46,857 nt of DNA from an uncultured Nitrososphaerales archaeon (GCA_964342655.1 CAYFFZ010000002.1:1-46857); one strand, 5' to 3'; shown: positions 4,257 to 46,857, counted from the first letter of the stretch. The notes: a model not told the origin generated them from the sequence alone. Translations and numbers: made by a program.

Positions 4257-5540
4257 TTACAAATGCTTCGGTTTATCCAAGAGATCTTTTTCTTCTTTTT
4301 CTAATACATATAAGAACATTCCCGCAATTATTGTAATAGAACCGATGTATAGAGCTTGTGTACCTAACGCCAGCATAACAAGTATAGAAAGCAGTATTGA
4401 AATTATCTGCACATAAGGATAAAGTGGGGAATTGAAAGGACCTTCGATCTTCCTTTTTCTTACAATATAAACGGCAAGCCCGGTAATTGCATATGAGAAT
4501 ATAACGCCAAAATTTGAAGCAAGTGCTATGTATTGTATATTTCCTAGAAATACAGAAATTATCGCAATGGTTCCAATAAGCAAAACAGCCCGCCTAGGAG
4601 AATCTTCTTTGCCAAGTGTTTTTGGAAGTAGCCCATCGTCGCTCATCTGTAAAAGAGTTCTTGAACCTGCAACTATAAGTGAAAGCGTCACGGTAACTGT
4701 TGCCACAATAGCGATTATGCCGATTATTTGATCTGTAAATAATGGAGCTTTAGAAAAGTTAAGCGCTTCTAAAAGAGGATCCGCGGTTACAGAGTATAAC
4801 TTCCATGGCATTAACGCTAGCATCCCTGCAACAACTAGAAGGTAAAGGAACGTGCTTATCCCAAGTGAAAAGATTATAGCTTTCGGAGCGTTTTTTCTGC
4901 CATTAACTATTTCAGGAGTAAGCGTAGCTACAGTGTTAAAACCTGAATAGGCAAAAAATGCCAATGAAGCGGACTGTATTATGCTAAAATATCCTTTGGG
5001 AATTAACGGAGTGAACCTTGTTGGAACCCACTTCCCATAAATTAATGAAAGAATAATAAACATGACAAGCCCGCCAGCTGTTATAACGACTAAAACTTCT
5101 TCTATCTCTGCAACAACTCTTATTCCAACATAGTTAAGGAAAACGGCAAAGGTCATGAGTATTATGGCGAGTAATGTTTCATAGCTTATAGATGAAATAC
5201 CAAGCATAGTTAAAAGGTAAGATGAAAATCCGAGCGCTACAGCGGAAGTTGCGATCGCGTAAGAGATCGCTCTAAGCCACCCGACGATGAATCCCATTGC
5301 CTCACCCATAGTCTCTTTTGCGAAAGAGTAAAGCCCACCGTGGGAAACTATCTTCGATGAAAGCTCAGCGCTATTTAACGCAACTGTTACCGCAAGAACA
5401 GCCGTGAGCAAAAAAGATATGATAGCGCCAGGTCCTGCTTGATATATTACAGAACCCGCTAACACAAATATCCCAGCCCCTATTATGTTTCCAAGCCCTA
5501 TCGCTGTTGCTTGCCAAAGGCTTATTGACCTTTTGCTCAA
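4257..5540 (-). CDS. APC-superfamily amino acid/polyamine permease
   Basis: 427 aa with 12 TM segments. N-terminal GLGNIIGAGIFVLAG motif characteristic of amino acid permeases. TTG start. Confidence 0.85.
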   Translation of the reverse strand: MSKRSISLWQATAIGLGNIIGAGIFVLAGSVIYQAGPGAIISFLLTAVLAVTVALNSAELSSKIVSHGGLYSFAKETMGEAMGFIVGWLRAISYAIATSAVALGFSSYLLTMLGISSISYETLLAIILMTFAVFLNYVGIRVVAEIEEVLVVITAGGLVMFIILSLIYGKWVPTRFTPLIPKGYFSIIQSASLAFFAYSGFNTVATLTPEIVNGRKNAPKAIIFSLGISTFLYLLVVAGMLALMPWKLYSVTADPLLEALNFSKAPLFTDQIIGIIAIVATVTVTLSLIVAGSRTLLQMSDDGLLPKTLGKEDSPRRAVLLIGTIAIISVFLGNIQYIALASNFGVIFSYAITGLAVYIVRKRKIEGPFNSPLYPYVQIISILLSILVMLALGTQALYIGSITIIAGMFLYVLEKEEKDLLDKPKHL

Positions 5541-23366: not shown

Positions 23367-24557
23367 TCAGAAAAGTATATCCTCTATTTCCCACGGTACT
23401 TTAAACTGTAAAATCTTTTTCTTTTCTCCGTTTATATTAGCCACTTTTTCTAGGTCTTTGCCCTGAGCATTAAGATACGCCTTCATCATGAAGAACCAAG
23501 GAGAAGGGGGCAGCTCAGAACCTTCTTCAAGCTCAACCGTTATCATTCTTGTAGTCTCATCATATTTGATCTCCCCGTTATTTATGTCGGTCTTTATGAG
23601 CTCTACAAAAGCGGGCAGTGCTGATCTGGCTTCAGCTTCAAAAATGCTTGTTTTGGTTTTATAGCTTTCAAGCATTTTATAAGAAATCTTTTTTAGCTCT
23701 TCTTCATCTAGTGTTTTGAGCGCGTTGTAGAAAAATATTCTGTAAGCATCGCTTTCGACCTTTAAGTTTATTAGATCTTCTGAAAACCCGGAGTGTAAGA
23801 ACTTTATGTATTCTTTGAGTTCAAGCGAGCCTTTAAAGCTTTCAATCAGCGCGTTGTTTATTATTAGCTTTACTATGTACGGCTGAATTATAACAGTAGA
23901 GGCCCCAGTTTCTGGATTATGAATCAAGAAAATTTCTTCATCAACAGCAACCATGCCCTTCTGATCCGGAATTTTACCAACTTTAATTGGAAGGTCAAGC
24001 GAGACAGCTTCATTGATCATGTCTTCATCGTTGTAAGGTATCATCACATTCAGGTTAACCTCTGCGAGCATCAACGACATCAACTGTTTCTCGTGCTTTT
24101 TTAACAACTGAAATATCTGCTGGTCTGCTATTACGTAAAGGCTGTACCTAGCCCTTTTAAGAAAATCGTTAAAAACGTTGTCCAGGGCATCTTCACCCAA
24201 TATCTGAAGGTTCCCTTTTAGTTGCGTAATCCCGTTTTTCTGGCTTAGTTCCTTTACTTCGTTTATCAAGCTTTTTACCTCTTTGTACTTCCTTTCTTCT
24301 TCAGCCAATATAGTTTCAAAAGGTTCAGGATTAGCTGTAACGGAAAACTTTTTTGGGCTTCCGTAAGCTTCTACAAGCTGCTTTTTAATAAGCCCCTTAA
24401 TCGCTTCGTATATCTTTGTCCTTGGAACCCCCGAGTGAAGCGCAAGCTCACTGGCATAGAGAGGTCCCTTTGTCAGAAGCGTCAAGTAAACCTTTGATTC
24501 GTATTCAGTAAACCCTAGCTCCATTAGCTTAAGAATCAGCTTAGAGTATTCAGACAT
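23367..24557 (-). CDS. TrmB-family winged-helix transcription regulator with a large C-terminal domain
   Basis: The N-terminus LGFTEYESKVYLTLLTKGPLYASELALHSGVPRTKIYEAIKGLIKKQLV is a canonical TrmB wHTH. A coiled-coil segment and about 280 further residues follow. Confidence 0.8.
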   Translation of the reverse strand: MSEYSKLILKLMELGFTEYESKVYLTLLTKGPLYASELALHSGVPRTKIYEAIKGLIKKQLVEAYGSPKKFSVTANPEPFETILAEEERKYKEVKSLINEVKELSQKNGITQLKGNLQILGEDALDNVFNDFLKRARYSLYVIADQQIFQLLKKHEKQLMSLMLAEVNLNVMIPYNDEDMINEAVSLDLPIKVGKIPDQKGMVAVDEEIFLIHNPETGASTVIIQPYIVKLIINNALIESFKGSLELKEYIKFLHSGFSEDLINLKVESDAYRIFFYNALKTLDEEELKKISYKMLESYKTKTSIFEAEARSALPAFVELIKTDINNGEIKYDETTRMITVELEEGSELPPSPWFFMMKAYLNAQGKDLEKVANINGEKKKILQFKVPWEIEDILF

Positions 24558-24622
24558 GAAAGAGAATTATAAGAATAAAGTTTTATCATAAAAAGATGAA
24601 ACCTTTTGACAAAATCCTCAAA

Positions 24623-24662
24623 TTTTTGTCACTAGCAGAAGGTGTACCTTAAGTGACAAAAA
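24623..24662. promoter_or_regulatory. Candidate operator: perfect 11-nt inverted repeat TTTTTGTCACT-N18-AGTGACAAAAA
   Basis: It lies between the divergent TrmB-family and ESCRT-III genes, just upstream of the cdvB-like TATA tract. A third TGACAAAA copy sits at 24607-24614. Confidence 0.5.
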
Positions 24663-24682
24663 GGTACGGTTACAGCAACATC

Positions 24683-24694
24683 ATATTTTATTTT
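24683..24694 (+). promoter_or_regulatory. TATA-like tract ATATTTTATTTT for the ESCRT-III gene
   Basis: It is centred about 26 nt before ATG 24713, the spacing expected for a leaderless transcript. Confidence 0.4.
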
Positions 24695-24712
24695 TTCTTA
24701 CTAAAGGGTACA

Positions 24713-25354
24713 ATGAGCGACTTTGCTAAAAGATGGGATCAACCTGAAGGAGAAAGTTTAGGAAACAGGATAAAAGGAGCTGTTAGGCCCGAGGGGCCGC
24801 TAAAGCCAAGAATAGAACAGGCTGTGAGGCAGCTTCAGATACAGATAACAAAGCTCGACAACGCTTCAAACAGGCTTAAGGAAAAGGACACTCAGCTATT
24901 CCAGAAGATAGTAAACTATCTCCAGAAGCACGACTCAGACCACGCTACAGTATACGCTAACGAACTGGCGGAAATCAGAAAGATGTACAAGATGATAAAC
25001 CAGGCTAAGCTAGCCCTAGAGCAGATAGTTACAAGGCTTACCACTGTAACAGACCTAGGAGACGTAGTTGTTACTCTAGCCCCAGCAATGGCTGTAATAA
25101 AGAGCGTAAGGTCAGGACTGATGCAGGTAATGCCGTCAGCAGAACAGGAAATATCAGAAATATCTTCGTTGCTAAGCAGCATATTGGTAGATGCTGGACA
25201 GCTTACTGGATCTACGCTGAACTTCGAAGCTGCGAACGAAGACGCAGAGAAGATACTGGCGGAAGCCAGTGCCTTAGCCGAAGCAAAGATGAAAGAGAAG
25301 CTGCCTGACCTCGGGTCTATCGGCCTTCCAGAAGGAGAAAAGCACCAGATTTAA
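24713..25354 (+). CDS. cdvB: ESCRT-III (CdvB/Snf7-family) protein lacking a C-terminal winged helix, with a MIM2-like tail
   Basis: Collinear with crenarchaeal CdvB (PLKPRIEQAVRQLQ..., ATVYANELAEIRKM, LAPAMAVIKSV...). The C-terminal KLPDLGSIGLPE resembles the CHMP6/CdvB MIM2 motif. The GTG 24653 extension in the ORF track overlaps the inverted repeat and is unlikely to be translated. Confidence 0.85.
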   Translation: MSDFAKRWDQPEGESLGNRIKGAVRPEGPLKPRIEQAVRQLQIQITKLDNASNRLKEKDTQLFQKIVNYLQKHDSDHATVYANELAEIRKMYKMINQAKLALEQIVTRLTTVTDLGDVVVTLAPAMAVIKSVRSGLMQVMPSAEQEISEISSLLSSILVDAGQLTGSTLNFEAANEDAEKILAEASALAEAKMKEKLPDLGSIGLPEGEKHQI

Positions 25355-25370
25355 GCATAACCTGAATAAT

Positions 25371-25398
25371 TCTATTTTTTCTTTTTGTTAATTTTTTA
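25371..25398 (+). terminator. Cluster of three oligo-T tracts after the cdvB-like gene
   Basis: TCTATTTTTTCTTTTTGTTAATTTTTTA begins 17 nt after the stop codon. Confidence 0.5.
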
Positions 25399-25447
25399 TG
25401 ACCTTTTCTGATAAATTGATCTCCGATCTAAAAACTGGTGTATTATT

Positions 25448-26023
25448 ATGAAGTTTAATATAAACCCCTTCAAGAAAAAGGAACCCGCTTTTAAAGACGC
25501 TTATCTTGAACTATCAAAATACAGAAACAATCTTCTAACTGTTATGTGGAGGATTAAAGTTAAAATAGACACGTTCAGCATAAGGGCTGAGAAAAGCAGA
25601 AGCCAAGAAGAGAGGGCCATATACGCTAAGGAAACAACGATACTTAAGCAGGTTTATGATGTGGTAGATAAGCTTGATGCGTTGCTCCTGAAAGTTATGC
25701 TCAGGCTTGACAGCTATAATGATTTAAGTTCAGTAATAGAATCTTTTAAGGAGACTAACAAAGCCATAGCTAAGTTAAAACCAGACCTTGACGCTCTATC
25801 AGAGGCTTATTCGACCCTCTTCGAGCAGCTCAGCGAAGCTAGCCAGTACTTTGGTACCATAACGGTTCAAGGTCAGCCGATACAGCTTTTCTCTGGAATG
25901 GACGCAGATAACATTCTTGAAGAAGCGGTAGAAAGGTCTTTGGAAATGGACAACGCAGAAGAAGAGCTCAAGAGCTTTCTTCTTAAGGCAGCAAGAGAAG
26001 GAGAATACGCAGAGATGATATAA
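25448..26023 (+). CDS. Divergent ESCRT-III/Snf7-like coiled-coil protein
   Basis: 191 aa. Basic N-terminus (NPFKKKEP), long helical heptad-like core and an acidic C-terminus ending in an amphipathic helix (EEELKSFLLKAAR). The stop lies 1 nt before the vps4 ATG. Confidence 0.55.
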   Translation: MKFNINPFKKKEPAFKDAYLELSKYRNNLLTVMWRIKVKIDTFSIRAEKSRSQEERAIYAKETTILKQVYDVVDKLDALLLKVMLRLDSYNDLSSVIESFKETNKAIAKLKPDLDALSEAYSTLFEQLSEASQYFGTITVQGQPIQLFSGMDADNILEEAVERSLEMDNAEEELKSFLLKAAREGEYAEMI

Positions 26024-26024
26024 A

Positions 26025-27197
26025 ATGAGTTATCAGGCAGCCCAAGAATTAGAAAGCCTTGCTGCGAAGTATGCAAGCGAAGCTATAAAATTAGACTCTC
26101 AGGGGAGCTATCCACAGGCAATACTGATGTATCAGAAAGCAATAGAAATGTTGATGAAGCTCATAAACCTGTACCCTAACTATCAGCTGAACCAGATATA
26201 CATGGAAAGGGCTCAAGCTTACAAACGCAGGATAGCTGAAATTCAGAGGATAAGGGGTTTGAACGATGGTGAAGCTGAAGAAGCGCCGACAACAAGCGGA
26301 GGCCGGGTAGAAACGCTCAGGGCCAATTTTGACGATCTGGTAATGAAAGAAAAGCCCGATGTAAAGTTCGATCAGGTTATAGGGTTAGATGAAGCTAAGA
26401 GGGCTCTTCAGGATGCTATCATATATCCTAACAAGAGACCAGACCTCTTTCCTTTAGGCTGGCCAAGAGGCATACTTCTTTACGGTCCTCCAGGATGTGG
26501 TAAAACGATGTTGGCTGCTGCTACCGCTGCAGAAATAGATGCTGTTTTTCTTTCTGTCGATGCAGCAAGCATAATGAGCAAGTGGCTCGGTGAAGCAGAA
26601 AAGAACGTTGCAAGGTTATTCCAGCAGGCAAGAGACATATCACAGCAAGAAGGGAAACCGGTAATTATATTTATAGATGAAGTAGATTCGCTCTTTGGCA
26701 CAAGGTCACAAGAAGTTGGAGGAGAAATAAGGGTCAGAAATCAGTTCCTAAAAGAAACGGATGGCATAAGCGAAAAAGGAAAGAAAACGCCCGTTTACAT
26801 TCTGGCAGCGACAAACAAGCCTTGGTCATTAGACCCGCCATTTTTGAGAAGGTTTGAAAAGAGAATATACGTGGGATTGCCTGTAATGGCGGCGCGTAAG
26901 AAAATGTTTGAGCTTTACACTGAACCATTATCTCTAGCTCCTGATGTTAAACTTGAAGAACTTGCAAAGCTTACTGAAGGTTATACCGGAAGCGATATAA
27001 AGGATATCGTACAGGCTGTTCAGCTTAACGTTGTAAGGGAGCTTTTTGAATCAGGAGAAGCATTAAAGCCCAACAGCAAACCAAGGCCCATTAACATGAA
27101 CGACTTCAAGACAGTGATAAAGCAGAGAAAACCAAGTGTAAGTCCAGAGATGGTCATGGCTTACCTGAAGTGGAGCGAAAGCTTTAAGGCTTTATAG
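26025..27197 (+). CDS. cdvC: Vps4/CdvC AAA+ ATPase with an N-terminal MIT domain
   Basis: MIT-like three-helix N-terminus (AAKYASEAIKLDSQGSYPQAILMYQKAIEML...). Walker A GPPGCGKT, Walker B IIFIDEVD, and SRH region ATNKPWSLDPPFLRRF. Confidence 0.92.
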   Translation: MSYQAAQELESLAAKYASEAIKLDSQGSYPQAILMYQKAIEMLMKLINLYPNYQLNQIYMERAQAYKRRIAEIQRIRGLNDGEAEEAPTTSGGRVETLRANFDDLVMKEKPDVKFDQVIGLDEAKRALQDAIIYPNKRPDLFPLGWPRGILLYGPPGCGKTMLAAATAAEIDAVFLSVDAASIMSKWLGEAEKNVARLFQQARDISQQEGKPVIIFIDEVDSLFGTRSQEVGGEIRVRNQFLKETDGISEKGKKTPVYILAATNKPWSLDPPFLRRFEKRIYVGLPVMAARKKMFELYTEPLSLAPDVKLEELAKLTEGYTGSDIKDIVQAVQLNVVRELFESGEALKPNSKPRPINMNDFKTVIKQRKPSVSPEMVMAYLKWSESFKAL

Positions 27198-27212
27198 TTT
27201 TCAAATAAAAGC

Positions 27213-27452
27213 ATGGAAAAGGTATTACAGGTAGAGGTCAAAAAGTCTCAAAAGTCCCTTAAAGTTCCAGAAGAAAAGCTCGGCGAGCTGAGGGGTATAG
27301 GAAACAGGCTTATTTCATCGATGAAAAAGGAGTATGTTGATTGTCCGGTAATAAAGCAACAGGTACCGTTTATAGCATGCTATCTATGTCCTTCGTTTAT
27401 AAGAAGATACAAAGGAGTTGTGTATTGCAAAGGAGAAAAAGGACCGTACTAA
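27213..27452 (+). CDS. Small basic protein with an HhH-like GIG hairpin and four Cys residues
   Basis: 79 aa. LGELRGIGNRLISSM fits the helix-hairpin-helix consensus. Cys spacing is C-x11-C-x2-C-x12-C. It starts 15 nt after vps4. Confidence 0.5.
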   Translation: MEKVLQVEVKKSQKSLKVPEEKLGELRGIGNRLISSMKKEYVDCPVIKQQVPFIACYLCPSFIRRYKGVVYCKGEKGPY

Positions 27453-27456
27453 AAAT

Positions 27457-28395
27457 TTAAACCTTGCAGTATAAATAAGCGTTTTCGATTAAAAAAGCTT
27501 TCGAGTTTTCTTTTCTTATCTTTTCATAAGCTTCTGTAAGGCTGCTGTAACCATCTATTCCAAGCTTTTTCAGATAAGTTAAAGGGAGCGATGTTACCAT
27601 GCTTAGTTTAGCCCTCTTTTGCAGATCATTCAAAACTTTTATAGTATAACTTTTTTCGCTTATACCAAGTATTGATAACCTGAGTCCTTCATCCCCGAGG
27701 CCTCTGCTGCATTTAGCCACAAGCAAAGCTTCTGCGCCATCTTCGATAATACCAGAGATTCCATAAAATGAAAGAAGCGCTTCTTTAAACGTAAGATCGT
27801 ACGGCAAACCGCCTGCAGATGCTATAACAAATTTCTTCCGTTTATGCTTCTGTGAGTTGTTTAAAAAGAATTCTTTTAACTTTTCATAAACGCTTAAACC
27901 CTCTCCCGCTATTGAAGGTCCATTCATTCCGAAATAACAAAAAGCTTTTGCACCACTGGTCTCTAGGAGCCTTTTAGAAAACCACACGCCGCCATCTTCT
28001 TCGCACGAATTAGGTTTGTCTTTTCTTTTTAAAACTTCGTCATCAGCTCCAAAAGTTTGAGCAATAACACTTTGTGGACCCTTAAACCAGTAAACCGGAT
28101 CTACTCTTACAGAACATACTAAAACGGTTTCTTTGAGAGCCTCAGGATAGGTAAAAAGGTAGCCGTCAACAACTTCTTCTTTCTTAGGACCTGTCATGTC
28201 CAAGGGCTTTAGTTCAGGCATTTTCACGTGCACAATTTTTTCAGAAAATTCAGAACCGTCTGTAAGGTAATACTTTGCTTCAACATTTTCTGAAAAGCTC
28301 TCTGGGGGTTTTATTGAAAATAATTCATCAATCTCTTCCCTTTTTAGCTTCAGGGATACTTCTTGCTCTCCATATGGCAACCAGATTTCAGGCAT
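27457..28395 (-). CDS. Hypothetical protein, LarA/DUF2088-like but apparently degenerate
   Basis: 312 aa. The N-terminal WLPYGEQEVSLKL resembles the LarA N-terminus, and AGGLPYDLTFKEAL...LVAKCSRGLGDEGL resembles the LarA C-terminal GGYPLDQN...DGHGGEGF region. It is shorter than LarA, and I did not see the catalytic motifs. Confidence 0.4.
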   Translation of the reverse strand: MPEIWLPYGEQEVSLKLKREEIDELFSIKPPESFSENVEAKYYLTDGSEFSEKIVHVKMPELKPLDMTGPKKEEVVDGYLFTYPEALKETVLVCSVRVDPVYWFKGPQSVIAQTFGADDEVLKRKDKPNSCEEDGGVWFSKRLLETSGAKAFCYFGMNGPSIAGEGLSVYEKLKEFFLNNSQKHKRKKFVIASAGGLPYDLTFKEALLSFYGISGIIEDGAEALLVAKCSRGLGDEGLRLSILGISEKSYTIKVLNDLQKRAKLSMVTSLPLTYLKKLGIDGYSSLTEAYEKIRKENSKAFLIENAYLYCKV

Positions 28396-28485: not shown

Positions 28486-29646
28486 ATGAATTTTATAAAA
28501 CCTGATTATAACGGGGGAAGCATTGCCAACATATATGGGAGCATACTGAAAAATTTTGGACTGGAGAGCAAAAGAAAGCCATTAAAAAGAAGTTTTGACG
28601 AAAGCGGGAAATTCGTGTTGGTCATATATGATGCTTTTGGTGAGAAAACGCTTGAAAAAGGATTAGAAAAAGGCTTCATAGACAAAGAAGTTCTTAAAAA
28701 ATTTGAGCACGAAACAATTACCAGCATATTTCCATCTACTACGGCATGCGCCATGCTTAGCTTTTATACGGGGTTAACTCCAGGCGAACATGGCGTTATG
28801 GGATTTACAACCTACATAAAAGAACTCGGAACAATAGTCAATATGTTAAACCTTTCGCATCCTTCACAAGAAACTCCGCTGCCTCTTATTTATCAGAACT
28901 TTACAAAGTACATTTCAGAAAAAGCGGTGCCCATAGGAGATAGGCTTGCAGAGAAAGGCATACGTGGGTATTCAATCATTCCAGCAAGCATCTACGATAC
29001 GCCAACAACGCAGTTTCACCATAGGGGTTTAGAAAGAGTTAAGTACTATTATCCTTGGGATGCTTTTCAGGCTGCAAGAAAGATACTTACAGAAAACGAG
29101 AGAGTTTTTCTTAACATCTATATACCCACTGTTGATACGCTCTCCCATCATTATGGACCATTTTCAGCCGAGACGTTATCTTCAGCTTCAGATCTATTGA
29201 AGATGCTTTTGAATTCGTTAGAAGGAATAAAAAATTTAACACTGCTGCTTACTGCAGACCACGGTCAAACAGACAATACAGTAAGCCATGTAGCTGACGA
29301 CTCTCTAATGGATATCCTTGAAATGCCTCCGTGGGGAGATTCAAGGGCTGCTTTTATGAAAGTTAAAGACGAAACAAAACTAAGACGGTACTTTGAAGAT
29401 AACCTAAAGGGTTTTGAATTGTTTACGCGCGAAGAATACATAAAAGAAGGCTTCCTTGGAGAAACGGTTGAACCAAGGTTTTACGATAGGCTGGGAGATA
29501 TGCTGGCTGTACCAAATGTCACGGAATCACTTATTTACTCCTACAGAGGTCCTGAAGGGGATAAAGATTATATAGCTTTTAAAGGACATCACGGGGGTCT
29601 AACAGAGGAAGAGCAGCTCGTACCCCTTCTTATTTATAGAAGCTAA
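28486..29646 (+). CDS. Alkaline-phosphatase-superfamily enzyme (type I phosphodiesterase/nucleotide pyrophosphatase family)
   Basis: FPSTTACAMLSFYTGLTPGEHGV nucleophile motif, TADHGQ metal-ligand motif and a C-terminal GHHGG. Confidence 0.8.
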   Translation: MNFIKPDYNGGSIANIYGSILKNFGLESKRKPLKRSFDESGKFVLVIYDAFGEKTLEKGLEKGFIDKEVLKKFEHETITSIFPSTTACAMLSFYTGLTPGEHGVMGFTTYIKELGTIVNMLNLSHPSQETPLPLIYQNFTKYISEKAVPIGDRLAEKGIRGYSIIPASIYDTPTTQFHHRGLERVKYYYPWDAFQAARKILTENERVFLNIYIPTVDTLSHHYGPFSAETLSSASDLLKMLLNSLEGIKNLTLLLTADHGQTDNTVSHVADDSLMDILEMPPWGDSRAAFMKVKDETKLRRYFEDNLKGFELFTREEYIKEGFLGETVEPRFYDRLGDMLAVPNVTESLIYSYRGPEGDKDYIAFKGHHGGLTEEEQLVPLLIYRS

Positions 29647-30275
29647 AATTCGAATTTTCTTTTTCTTGCATACCTTCCCCTTCTTTCTATTTCTTCTACT
29701 TTATTCATCAACCTATCTTTTGCTATATTGCTTATTGAAAAATACCCGTCAGAGAAAGATTCGAGAGCCCGCTCATAAACATCTGAATGCTGGACATTAA
29801 GTATTTCTTTAAAGAGATGAAAATCAACAGCATAATCTTCTAGCCTTTCAGTATAGTAAGAAAGGCCAAAATCTATCATGAACCATCTATCGTTTTTTAA
29901 TTCGAGCAAAAGGTTTGAGGTGTTTGGATCGCCGTGAGCTATTCTGTTATTGTGAAGTTTTGCAAGATATTCTCCCGCAACGTACGAAAGCTCAGGCTTA
30001 CTGTTAATCAGATCTTTCATAGTCTTTCCTTCAATATACTGCATTACTATTGTATATGATTTGAGCCCCACATAAAGGACATATGGGGTTAAGATATAAC
30101 TTCTTGCGGCCCGCAGCATTTTTGCCTCCCTGATTGTCCTGCTTTTTCTGAGATAGTTGTCCAGATCTTTAACCATATAAGGCTTTTTAACTCTTATCTT
30201 GTAAATCGCGTTGAGAGGACCCCATTTACCTAAGTATATATCAGCTTCAGCCCCCCTGCTTATCAGCCTCTCCAT
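29643..30275 (-). CDS. bud32: Bud32/PRPK-type Kae1-associated kinase
   Basis: ISRGAEADIY glycine-loop equivalent and HGDPNTSNLL catalytic loop. The ATG at 30275 is preferred over the TTG at 30302. Confidence 0.85.
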   Translation of the reverse strand: MERLISRGAEADIYLGKWGPLNAIYKIRVKKPYMVKDLDNYLRKSRTIREAKMLRAARSYILTPYVLYVGLKSYTIVMQYIEGKTMKDLINSKPELSYVAGEYLAKLHNNRIAHGDPNTSNLLLELKNDRWFMIDFGLSYYTERLEDYAVDFHLFKEILNVQHSDVYERALESFSDGYFSISNIAKDRLMNKVEEIERRGRYARKRKFEF

Positions 30276-31246
30276 GGCACTTCCACCTCGTCGATTCTCC
30301 AAGATTGATCTATAAATCCGTTTTCAGGTTGAACGCTATAGCCATGTTTATGGTAAAGCGCGCCGGGCCAAGCTATCTGCGCTCCATTATCACCTGCGTA
30401 TTCAGCAGGAACTATAAGCAGCTCGCTTCCATGTCTTTCTGCAACAGAATTGAGTATTTCCTTTAATCTTTTGTTAGCTGCAACGCCACCAACCACCATT
30501 ATCTCAGGCTTTTTTGTAAGCGCTAAAGCTCTTTCCGCGGTTTCTGCAAGCATAGAAAAAGCCACCTCTTGCAATGAATAAGCCAAATCCTCAACGCTAA
30601 CGCTTCTTAACGACTTCTTTGCAGCACTAAGTATTCCAGAAAAAGAAAGGTCATTACCTTTAACCACATAAGGTAGCTGAACGAAATTTCTACCTTTTAA
30701 AGCAAGCGTCTCTACTTGGGGACCTGACGGAGAAGATAGTCCCACGCTCCTCCCGAACTGGTCTATAAGCTGACCGAGCGTTATATCTAACGTTTCCCCA
30801 AAAACCCTCCATCTTTTATCATGAGCTGAAAGTATCATCGTGTGACCGCCAGAAAGTAAAAGCACAAGCGGATCTTTAGCGCCTGTAAGAAGTGCTCCTA
30901 GCTCTATATGCCCTACTCCATGATGAACCGGAATAAGCGGTTTATCATAATAAGCAGAGATAAACCTTGCAAGTGTAGCACCAACCCTTAAACATGGACC
31001 TAGCCCTGGGCCTGCTGAATACGCTATGAATTCAAGATCGCGGTACGTAATAGAAGCTTTTTCAAGTGACTCTTTTAGAATCTTTGGTGCTACATCTGAA
31101 TGATGTCTAGAAGCTTCTCGTGGATGTATGCCTGCCCCTTCAGGTGGCCTGTAGACATCCTTAACGTTTGATATGATTCTTCCGTCTTCGCTAACTACAG
31201 AAGCTCCAAAAGTATGAGCCGTGCTTTCTATTCCAAGCCCTATCAT
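30263..31246 (-). CDS. kae1: tRNA N6-adenosine threonylcarbamoyltransferase Kae1
   Basis: MIGLGIESTAHTFG, VHHGVGH metal site, GGVAAN motif and C-terminal RIDEVEVPW. The ATG at 31246 is preferred over the GTG at 31258. Confidence 0.92.
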   Translation of the reverse strand: MIGLGIESTAHTFGASVVSEDGRIISNVKDVYRPPEGAGIHPREASRHHSDVAPKILKESLEKASITYRDLEFIAYSAGPGLGPCLRVGATLARFISAYYDKPLIPVHHGVGHIELGALLTGAKDPLVLLLSGGHTMILSAHDKRWRVFGETLDITLGQLIDQFGRSVGLSSPSGPQVETLALKGRNFVQLPYVVKGNDLSFSGILSAAKKSLRSVSVEDLAYSLQEVAFSMLAETAERALALTKKPEIMVVGGVAANKRLKEILNSVAERHGSELLIVPAEYAGDNGAQIAWPGALYHKHGYSVQPENGFIDQSWRIDEVEVPWRG

Positions 31247-31680
31247 TCTTCCAACCACTTTGAAGTTCCATCTTCATAAATTTCTTTTTTCCATATGGTA
31301 GGTTCTTTTTTATATCGTTCGATTACATATGGAAGTGCAGAAAGCCCTTGGCTTCTATCTCTGCTCCATATTATCGCAACTATAAGCGGTTCGCCGGGGG
31401 AAAAATAGCCATAAAAATGGTATATTCTGCAATCGTTTGTTGAAAACCTGTTTATCGTATCATAACAAATCTCCTTCAATTTTTTATCGGCTAATTCTTT
31501 ATAGGCTTCTATGTAAAGTTGCTTTACTTTTTTACCATCTTTGCTGAGTTCTTTTACTGTTCCTATATAATAAAGGATTATACCATCTTTCCCCGGATCT
31601 CTGTTTAAAGCTTCAGAAATAACCTTTACGAAGTCAAGCTTGCCTTTTTCATACATCCCGCTTTCAGGGATTTCATTCAT
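31243..31680 (-). CDS. moaE: MoaE-like molybdopterin synthase catalytic subunit family protein
   Basis: Collinear with MoaE (GTVK..., IYHFYGYFSPGEPLIVAIIWS.DR, PTIWKKE...G..W). Start at ATG 31680 or TTG 31686. Confidence 0.7.
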   Translation of the reverse strand: MNEIPESGMYEKGKLDFVKVISEALNRDPGKDGIILYYIGTVKELSKDGKKVKQLYIEAYKELADKKLKEICYDTINRFSTNDCRIYHFYGYFSPGEPLIVAIIWSRDRSQGLSALPYVIERYKKEPTIWKKEIYEDGTSKWLEE

Positions 31681-46269: not shown

Positions 46270-46857
46270 CTATTCTTTTTTACATTCATTTGATAATCTA
46301 TCTGGATAATCTCCTGTAAGATCGTCCACTCCCATTTCGCAGAACTTTCTTATGTCCTTTATTTCATTTACTGTCCACAAACCTAAATTAATGCCATTTT
46401 TATGTAACTCTATAATATCATCCTTACTGTAAACCAAACCTTGAAAAGCCTGAATCCAAGTAGCCTCAAGTTTTTTTGCTATGTCTATAAACCACCTAGG
46501 CCTACCTTCTATTATCAGCCCGACCTCGATTTCTCTGTCGAGTTCTCTCACTTTTTTTAAAGAATCAAAATCGAACGAAATTATTTGTACGTTTTTCTTT
46601 AAACGAAAATTTTCAACGGTTTCAAGTACTTTTTCCTCGATATTCGGATAATATTCATGGCTGTGTTTTATCTCGACCTTATAAAGAAGCTTATCTCGAT
46701 ACCTGTCAAAAACTTCTGAAAGCGTTGGGACTTTTGTACCTGCATATTTTGGAGAAAACTTGATTCCAGCATCAAGAGTTGTTATTTGATTTAGGCTCAT
46801 TTCTTGTATGTAGCCTTTTCCATTTCTAGTTCGGGCAACAGATTCGTAATGCATTAC
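46270..46857 (-). CDS. Glycerophosphodiester phosphodiesterase (GDPD) family, 5' end outside the window
   Basis: The reading frame stays open to the window edge. The visible part corresponds to the central and C-terminal GDPD barrel (...RTRNGKGYIQEMSLNQITTLDAG...GLWTVN...GVDDLTGDYPD). Confidence 0.8.
   Translation of the reverse strand, partial: VMHYESVARTRNGKGYIQEMSLNQITTLDAGIKFSPKYAGTKVPTLSEVFDRYRDKLLYKVEIKHSHEYYPNIEEKVLETVENFRLKKNVQIISFDFDSLKKVRELDREIEVGLIIEGRPRWFIDIAKKLEATWIQAFQGLVYSKDDIIELHKNGINLGLWTVNEIKDIRKFCEMGVDDLTGDYPDRLSNECKKE

Follow-up and report, generated by a model that had tools for sequence, protein, structure and literature searches.

Gene content of the locus

The genes considered here lie at positions 23,367 to 27,452 of a 46,857-nucleotide (nt) stretch of DNA from an uncultured Nitrososphaerales archaeon (GCA_964342655.1 CAYFFZ010000002.1:1-46857). 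The whole stretch is referred to as the window. The genes encode a Vps4-type ATPase, two ESCRT-III proteins, a TrmB-family transcription factor and a small protein with invariant cysteines. The locus is probably the cdv (ESCRT-III/Vps4) cell-division cluster of a Conexivisphaerales archaeon, built like other thaumarchaeal loci. All open reading frames (ORFs) named in a preliminary description of this DNA were present where it had placed them. The features are as follows, with lengths in amino acids (aa).

23367–24557, minus strand: TrmB-family transcription factor, 396 aa, with a winged helix-turn-helix (wHTH) at residues 1–75, a long helix at 78–106, a PLD-like alpha/beta domain at 117–245 and a C-terminal domain at 247–390.
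24607–24673, no strand assigned: candidate operator, with a palindrome of TGACAAAA (24607–24614), N9 and TTTTGTCA (24624–24631) overlapping a four-site array.
Four-site array in the window, no strand assigned: GTCAC (24628–24632), N11, GTACC (24644–24648), N4, GTGAC (24653–24657), N11, GTTAC (24669–24673).
24682–24696, plus strand: A/T-rich TATA-like box, read from the sequence, about 17–31 nt upstream of the ATG at 24713.
24713–25354, plus strand: CdvB1/B2-type ESCRT-III protein, 213 aa, with the amphipathic N-terminus MSDFAKRW and the MIM2-like tail LPDLGSIGLPE.
25448–26023, plus strand: ESCRT-III protein of degenerate CdvB type, 191 aa, the positional orthologue of winged-helix CdvB, without linker and winged helix.
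26025–27197, plus strand: CdvC/Vps4 AAA+ ATPase, 390 aa, with MIT, AAA, lid and Vps4_C domains.
27213–27452, plus strand: lineage-specific protein, 79 aa, with a GIG (HhH-like) motif and four invariant cysteines, starting 15 nt after vps4.

The host is a hot-spring member of the Conexivisphaerales (Nitrososphaerota). Its Vps4 is 55–90% identical to the Vps4 of 80 Nitrososphaeria and related genomes. The closest genomes by this measure are metagenome-assembled genomes of Nitrososphaeria, namely CAYFJA01 (90% identity) and three others, including UBA164 (78–81%). The Vps4 sequence also occurs on contigs of the ENA samples ERZ1669250, ERZ1669415 and ERZ1669247 and of the Joint Genome Institute (JGI) sample 3300019780. 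UBA164 is a family within the order Conexivisphaerales according to a taxonomy look-up, and the 90% cluster of the TrmB-like protein includes one member labelled Conexivisphaerales. The wider flanks hold ordinary chromosomal genes, including those for an RNA polymerase subunit, TFS, the trp operon, Kae1/Bud32, eIF-1A and purine genes. The second ESCRT-III gene, vps4 and the 79-aa gene are tightly packed, with gaps of 1 nt and 15 nt. Rfam and tRNA scans found nothing in the cdv region.

Gene order was counted over 58 species-level loci in which 3.3 kb or more of the DNA preceding vps4 was available. They cover ammonia-oxidizing archaea (AOA; Nitrososphaera, Nitrosopumilus and Nitrosomirales) and non-AOA lineages. 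An ESCRT-III gene lies directly upstream of vps4 in 57 of the 58 loci, and two ESCRT-III genes are present in 49. The preliminary description had named the TrmB-like protein as a candidate partner and had proposed examining its linkage to vps4. This linkage is conserved: a divergent, adjacent TrmB-like gene is found in 46/58 loci, and it persists across orders while other flanking genes change. The locus is single-copy and near-universal in the class, as judged from the Nitrososphaeria loci compared. It belongs to the Cdv system already known from thaumarchaea and does not represent a novel type; by itself it adds just one Conexivisphaerales example to what has been described. Three aspects seem to be new: the CdvB ancestry of the second ESCRT-III protein, the conserved TrmB-like gene together with its candidate operator, and the 79-aa gene of this lineage.

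Vps4 and the two ESCRT-III proteins

The product of 26025–27197 had been taken for an MIT-domain AAA+ ATPase of the Vps4/CdvC type, and the domain matches bear this out. Pfam places MIT at residues 13–74 (E = 9.2e-9; 35.7 bits against a cut-off of 30), followed by AAA (E = 8.7e-37), AAA_lid_3 and Vps4_C (E = 4e-6; 27.3 bits against 21.3). The Walker A (GPPGCGKT) and Walker B (IIFIDEVD) motifs are read in the translation, which has a single AAA+ cassette. The NCBIfam CdvC model matches the full length (E = 7e-161) at 535 bits, below its equivalog cut-off of 650. The sub-cut-off score reflects divergence, not a different family; the model was presumably trained mainly on crenarchaeal CdvC.

The first ESCRT-III protein (24713–25354) had been described as collinear with CdvB, ending in a MIM2-like tail without a winged helix. 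The tail, KLPDLGSIGLPE, is present and no winged helix follows it, while the assignment to CdvB requires revision. The protein scores 27.6 bits against Pfam Snf7, just over the gathering cut-off of 27.3. Its matches to the NCBIfam CdvB1/B2 model (E = 8e-55) and to a CdvB2 of known structure (PDB 9s97; E = 5e-42) show it to be of the CdvB1/B2 type, not CdvB proper. Its final residues are KLPDLGSIGLPEGEKHQI, at the site of the MIM2 core in thaumarchaeal CdvB proteins. LPDLGSIGLPE lies at about residues 197–207 and the MIM2 core of the listed thaumarchaeal CdvB proteins at about 196–200, which is a match in position. The hydrophobic moment of the N-terminus is 0.59, above the 90th percentile of the protein.

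Public gene calls begin this gene at a GTG at 24653, giving 233 aa. The N-termini of homologues align with MSDFAKRW at the ATG at 24713, and the 60-nt extension (24653–24712) is unsupported and overlaps the conserved GTNAC sites described below. The real start is likely the ATG at 24713. A GTATTAT box is conserved in AOA loci at the place equivalent to the TATA-like box, which would give a leaderless or short-leader cdvB1/B2 transcript.

The second protein (25448–26023) was called a much more divergent Snf7-like protein ending 1 nt before vps4. The spacing is as described, with the stop ending at 26023 and the vps4 ATG at 26025, and the homology is evident at the level of profiles. Taken alone, the sequence is weak evidence, with 14.8 bits against the Snf7 cut-off of 27.3 (E = 0.023) and a match to NCBIfam CdvB3 at E = 2.6e-4. 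A single-sequence phmmer search matched the neighbouring first ESCRT-III protein at 2e-4. A profile of the protein and its four orthologues, from the loci numbered L005–L008, was aligned by hhalign with a profile of the winged-helix CdvB orthologues that occupy this position in other lineages (98.7% probability, E = 2e-16, 165 columns) and with a CdvB1/2-like set (91.6%). When the clade-only profile was compared with all PDB sequences, the best match was Sulfolobus islandicus CdvB (9s9j; E = 4.4e-6, residues 3–163 against 7–176), with CdvB2 next. Both proteins are thus placed in the ESCRT-III superfamily, the first by Snf7 and CdvB1/B2 and the second by hhalign and the PDB profile match.

Elsewhere, this position is occupied by proteins of 260–311 aa that end in a winged helix and align with the NCBIfam CdvB model up to position 257–258 of 260. 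The alignment of the 25448–26023 product with them is collinear. The product is therefore a positional orthologue of CdvB, without the linker and winged helix, which it has lost. Neither ESCRT-III protein of the window carries a winged helix, as both end before it. The positional orthologues indicate that CdvB lost the winged helix in the window, L005, L006, L007 and L008, and that the next relatives, L009–L012, have kept it. At the C-terminus of the 25448–26023 product, an amphipathic helix is conserved, EEELKSFLLKAAREGE (hydrophobic moment 0.58), which, as a guess, might serve as a MIM1-like contact for Vps4. A single-sequence AlphaFold2 (AF2) model (predicted local distance difference test score, pLDDT, of 64) has helices at 13–49, 53–89, 93–132 and 152–190. 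Foldseek gave no significant match to this model; the best natural matches were CdvB2 and CdvB at E = 0.02–0.03.

The 93-nt gap between the two ESCRT-III genes (25355–25447) is T-rich, with runs of T6, T5 and T6. An oligo-T terminator of the archaeal kind and an internal promoter may be located here; they would separate the first gene from a unit of the second ESCRT-III gene, vps4 and the 79-aa gene.

Short helical proteins are also encoded directly upstream of cdvC in 29 AOA loci (L013, L015, L017, L018, L020, L024–L027, L030 and others; for example L025:5285-5902). Their profile aligns with that of winged-helix CdvB at 97.7% (E = 1e-12), and its top PDB match is CdvB 9s9j (E = 2e-5). They are probably the arCOG08707 family, which has been described as similar to no known protein, and they look like decayed CdvB. 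If so, the "extra" helical protein upstream of cdvC is a remnant of CdvB, which gives a simpler picture of how the thaumarchaeal machinery evolved. Nitrosopumilus-type loci (L081:4917-5986, L084 and L078) are arranged differently. There the TrmB-like gene is followed by a very divergent ESCRT-III-like protein of 187–192 aa (NCBIfam CdvB1/B2, E = 2e-6), a 164-aa protein without a detectable family and then cdvC, and the canonical CdvB is encoded elsewhere in the genome.

In many non-AOA Nitrososphaeria, by contrast, the gene immediately preceding vps4 encodes a winged-helix CdvB of 260–311 aa. The loci are L009:3911-4726, L010:2249-3097, L029:5144-6004, L050:5063-5995, L055:5063-5998 (Gagatemarchaeum), L080, L083 and about 14 more. 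A winged helix has been stated in print to be missing from every thaumarchaeal CdvB; given these loci, this seems true of AOA and the UBA164-type lineage only. Lineages that have kept the winged helix and those without it form a natural comparison set for how the link to CdvA was lost.

The TrmB-like gene and a candidate operator

The 396-aa protein matches Pfam TrmB (E = 1.6e-18; 66.7 bits against a cut-off of 25.6), and NCBIfam TrmB aligns with residues 5–157. In Foldseek, its AF2 model (pLDDT 75) matched TrmBL2 (5bpd; E = 1e-12) and TrmB (3qph; E = 1e-8). These matches span the wHTH, the arm and the PLD-like domain; the middle domain corresponds to the PLD-like subdomain only (2f5t; E = 2.6e-5). 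For residues 247–390 (about 145 aa) there was no Foldseek match, and Pfam and NCBIfam gave nothing beyond about residue 160, with no sugar-binding domain detected.

The intergenic region between this gene and the first ESCRT-III gene contains an array of GTNAC half-sites. The layout, site 1-N10/11-site 2-N4-site 3-N10/11-site 4, aligns across the Nitrososphaeria, and the array sits just upstream of the cdv TATA-like box at a fixed distance. Unlike the sequence around it, it is retained in lineages ranging from Nitrosopumilus to Conexivisphaerales. The strict core, GTNAC-N4-GTNAC, occurs in 33 of 52 TrmB-cdvB intergenic regions (9.2 kb; 0.18 expected; Poisson P of about 2e-62). In the remainder of the 827 kb of locus sequence there are 16 copies, or about 0.02 per kb. 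Upstream of the ESCRT-III gene in loci without a divergent TrmB-like gene, the core was found in 0 of 11 (Fisher P = 9e-5). The loci are phylogenetically related, so both P values overstate independence. In the window, GTNAC-N11-GTNAC is unique (0.16 expected). The half-sites resemble the TCAC/GTGA arms of the Thermococcales TrmB site. In relatives of TrmB, a site upstream of the TATA box is associated with activation. The TrmB-like protein is predicted to bind the GTNAC array and to control the cdv genes.

Alternatively, the TrmB-like gene could be an ordinary sugar or metabolic regulator that lies beside the cdv genes by chance, with an array that is autoregulatory only or belongs to another factor. 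The relatives of TrmB are sugar regulators or chromatin proteins, and the array lies between both promoters, where it could serve the regulator's own gene only. The motif is also missing upstream of cdvA; GTNAC-N4-GTNAC was found in 0 of 65 upstream regions of thaumarchaeal cdvA, and a wider division regulon using the motif was rejected on this count. Against this reading stand the retention of the linkage in 46/58 loci across orders, with other flanks changing, and the fixed distance at which the array abuts the cdv TATA box. Pfam found nothing beyond the N-terminal TrmB HTH, with no sugar-binding domain detected, and the extra C-terminal domain is a different one. Control of the cdv genes by the TrmB-like protein is preferred, and a chance association is rather unlikely.

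In the literature searched, no mention was found of TrmB as a neighbour of the cdv genes, nor of any transcriptional regulator of thaumarchaeal division genes. The main text of Makarova 2024 (PMC11188069) mentions neither a TrmB-like neighbour nor its operator. The TrmB-like gene and its candidate operator are the first concrete candidate found for transcriptional control of division genes in thaumarchaea.

One close relative departs from this arrangement. L008 (UBA164, DAJU01000010.1) keeps both ESCRT-III genes, vps4 and the 79-aa gene; upstream of its position 4480, a TrmB-like gene was not detected, and the only pair of half-sites is GTAAC-N10-GTCAC, 86 nt before the first gene.

The 79-aa protein and the Sm-like gene

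Two further genes had been put forward as partners of vps4. The 79-aa gene directly follows vps4 in all close relatives, L005–L008, with 63–91% identity, which supports a linkage to vps4 within this lineage. It was found nowhere else among 84 window-related and vps4 loci, so the linkage does not extend beyond the lineage. The protein had no Pfam, NCBIfam or PDB match. The Sm-like gene, syntenic only in the nearest relative, L005, was rejected as a partner on that ground.

Absence of cdvA from the window

The preliminary description characterised the module as CdvA-less. No CdvA or PRC-barrel ORF was found in the window, as it had noted. Pfam scans of all ORFs of at least 90 aa except 46270–46854 gave none, and three CdvA hidden Markov models (HMMs) searched against the six-frame translation with filters off, which covers 46270–46854 too, gave no CdvA (best E from 0.34 to 1.8). 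The sequences behind the HMMs were 120 from Bathyarchaeia, 115 diverse representatives and 80 of Nitrososphaerales type.

The location of cdvA in related organisms bears on how this result is to be read. Among the 80 related vps4 loci, cdvA is present in only two, the Bathyarchaeota-labelled L044 and L075, where it lies between two ESCRT-III genes. Two further operon-type cdvA loci (L085 and L086–L089), reached via CdvA representatives, are from other lineages. In the Nitrososphaeria loci compared, including those of AOA that own CdvA, no cdvA lies within 6 kb of vps4. Thaumarchaeal cdvA is not linked to cdvB or cdvC; in N. gargensis, for example, cdvA and cdvC map to 1.785 Mb and 0.42 Mb, respectively (Frohn 2022, PMC8970359). 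Since no Nitrososphaeria vps4 locus compared has cdvA nearby, its absence from 47 kb is uninformative. The host group keeps cdvA unlinked, and the term CdvA-less is unsupported rather than disproved.

Searches for cdvA beyond the window were indirect, the DNA read being this contig and pieces of 6–10 kb from relatives. A homologue search seeded with the CdvA of the Bathyarchaeota locus L044 gave Bathyarchaeia only, among the matches listed. A search of representatives gave 394 CdvA representatives, without taxonomy. Four of these were checked by context and belong to other lineages, not to the window organism: P0143 and P0274 are operon-type, and P0205 and P0257 are stand-alone genes with a GC content of 43% and 33%, respectively, compared to 38% here. 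A profile of the stand-alone CdvA types gave 25 matches, none from Conexivisphaerales, and a cdvA scan of JGI data gave 80 loci, none from sample 3300019780. Look-ups seeded with genes at the edges of the window added no further DNA. Stand-alone cdvA genes occur in Nitrososphaerales-type lineages, in L093:4001-4690 (JAWBXJ01), L095 (JARVKA01), L091:1927-2598 and L100–L179. In some of the encoded proteins, such as P0257 and P0226, an amphipathic tail, WL(T/S)R(I/F)LK, takes the place of the terminal beta-strand motif of operon-type CdvA.

It is conceivable that the lineage truly lacks CdvA and that other factors recruit and position ESCRT-III and Vps4, for instance the 79-aa protein, or the TrmB-like protein in the role of a winged-helix adaptor. 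Such a loss would fit a CdvB-type gene that has lost the CdvA-binding winged helix in the window and L005–L008 while L009–L012 keep it, a well-conserved, lineage-specific small protein that follows vps4, and the failure to recover a Conexivisphaerales CdvA among the matches listed. However, AOA likewise have no winged-helix CdvB but retain a CdvA, whose gene is distant from cdvC. The absence of cdvA from the window is expected, and the failed searches are indirect, covering only the matches listed and not an exhaustive scan of the window organism's genome. A lineage without CdvA is quite improbable. The preliminary description had also held that membrane targeting must work differently here. 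This argument is weakened by published evidence of membrane binding by all CdvB paralogues through their own N-terminal amphipathic helices (PMC12818579).

Relationship to known systems

The closest known counterpart is the thaumarchaeal cdv locus, consisting of cdvB, the gene for the arCOG08707 coiled-coil protein and cdvC, as described in Makarova 2024 (PMC11188069). That paper already reports that CdvB in thaumarchaea has no winged helix and that an additional helical protein is encoded upstream of cdvC. Like that locus, the window has an ESCRT-III gene followed by a divergent helical protein directly upstream of cdvC/vps4, no CdvB winged helix, and no cdvA in the locus. The window lineage adds the 79-aa cysteine protein after vps4.

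With the cdvA-cdvB-cdvC operon of the Sulfolobales, the locus has in common homologous proteins of the ESCRT-III and Vps4 families, a tail of the MIM2 type, which in the window would be a candidate for MIT binding, and N-terminal segments of the ESCRT-III paralogues, which here are predicted to bind the membrane. Unlike the Sulfolobales operon, the window locus is without cdvA, its CdvB-type protein is without the winged helix that binds the CdvA E3B peptide, and its first gene is of the CdvB1/B2 type. The putative regulator is TrmB-like, whereas that of the Sulfolobales is the ribbon-helix-helix (RHH) factor aCcr1. With no cdvA in the locus and no winged helix, the locus is therefore not a Sulfolobales-type CdvABC operon, which is the known thaumarchaeal condition.

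Operons of the Bathyarchaeia type, cdvB1/2-cdvA-cdvB (winged helix)-cdvC (L044, L075, L085 and L086), share the order of a CdvB1/B2-like gene, a CdvB-type gene and vps4. They insert cdvA (Pfam PF18822) and keep the winged helix; the window does neither. The upstream DNA of L044 and L075 was searched and has no divergent TrmB-like gene. These four-gene operons are found in Bathyarchaeia and some other lineages (L044:3613-7170, L075:3506-7182, L085:5342-8715 and L086:4318-7729), and operon-type CdvA proteins end in a PEPPVVVYVKE-type strand.

The TrmB-like protein shares with TrmB and TrmBL2 (PDB 3qph and 5bpd) the wHTH, dimerisation helix and PLD-like domain, in the same order. It differs from them in that no sugar-binding subdomain was detected by Pfam, in its extra, unmatched C-terminal domain of about 145 aa, and in its conserved linkage to division genes.

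Proposed role in cell division

As a division cluster, the locus might function as follows. Both ESCRT-III proteins would polymerise on the membrane through their own N-terminal segments, as for the Sulfolobus CdvB paralogues, and by analogy with published work on Sulfolobus and N. maritimus, these polymers would form at the division site. Vps4 would engage the MIM2-like tail of the first ESCRT-III protein through MIT-tail contacts, possibly also the C-terminal amphipathic helix of the second, and would remodel and disassemble the polymer during division. The TrmB-like protein would bind the GTNAC array just upstream of the TATA box and control the cdv genes and its own gene. Any cdvA that has been retained would lie at a distance from this locus, following the pattern of other thaumarchaea, and its product would work without a winged-helix tether.

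Several observations weigh against parts of this scheme. A role in division rather than vesicle budding is drawn from analogy with other thaumarchaea. The N-terminus of the second ESCRT-III protein is hydrophobic and basic, not clearly amphipathic (hydrophobic moment 0.31), and the fold model of this protein is of low confidence. The central N4 pair of the window's array has one mismatch (GTACC), the motif does not extend to cdvA, and the relatedness of the loci tempers the statistics given above. Finally, the cdvA of the window organism was not found by the indirect searches, and its presence is assumed from relatives.

The module could instead serve vesicle budding, membrane repair or virus release. 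In the Sulfolobales, the same proteins also make extracellular vesicles, and thaumarchaea also encode an FtsZ homologue, both according to PMC11188069; nothing in the sequence specifies the process. A non-cytokinetic role is at odds with the use of ESCRT for division by thaumarchaea, with the localisation of N. maritimus CdvA and CdvC to the division site (PMC8970359 and PMC11188069), and with the single-copy, near-universal occurrence of the cdv locus in the class. It seems more likely that the locus functions in division, and a role restricted to these other processes is judged quite unlikely.

A bolder scheme can also be drawn. The UBA164-type Conexivisphaerales might have dropped the CdvA-CdvB tether, and perhaps CdvA itself, and might divide with two self-anchoring ESCRT-III proteins and Vps4. 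The 79-aa protein, with its cysteines and HhH-like motif, would then be a new adaptor, and the TrmB-like factor would act through the four-site GTNAC operator as a cell-cycle switch for the cdv genes across the thaumarchaea. As a whole, this combination is very unlikely.

Neighbouring genes

Facing the 79-aa gene in convergent orientation is a 312-aa ORF (27457–28395, minus strand) that is syntenic in L005. Its similarity to LarA-type nickel racemases is weak and extends over about 60 residues of their C-terminal part (NCBIfam, E = 7e-7). Further downstream (29643–31258, minus strand), the Bud32-like kinase and Kae1/TsaD are encoded by separate, overlapping adjacent genes.

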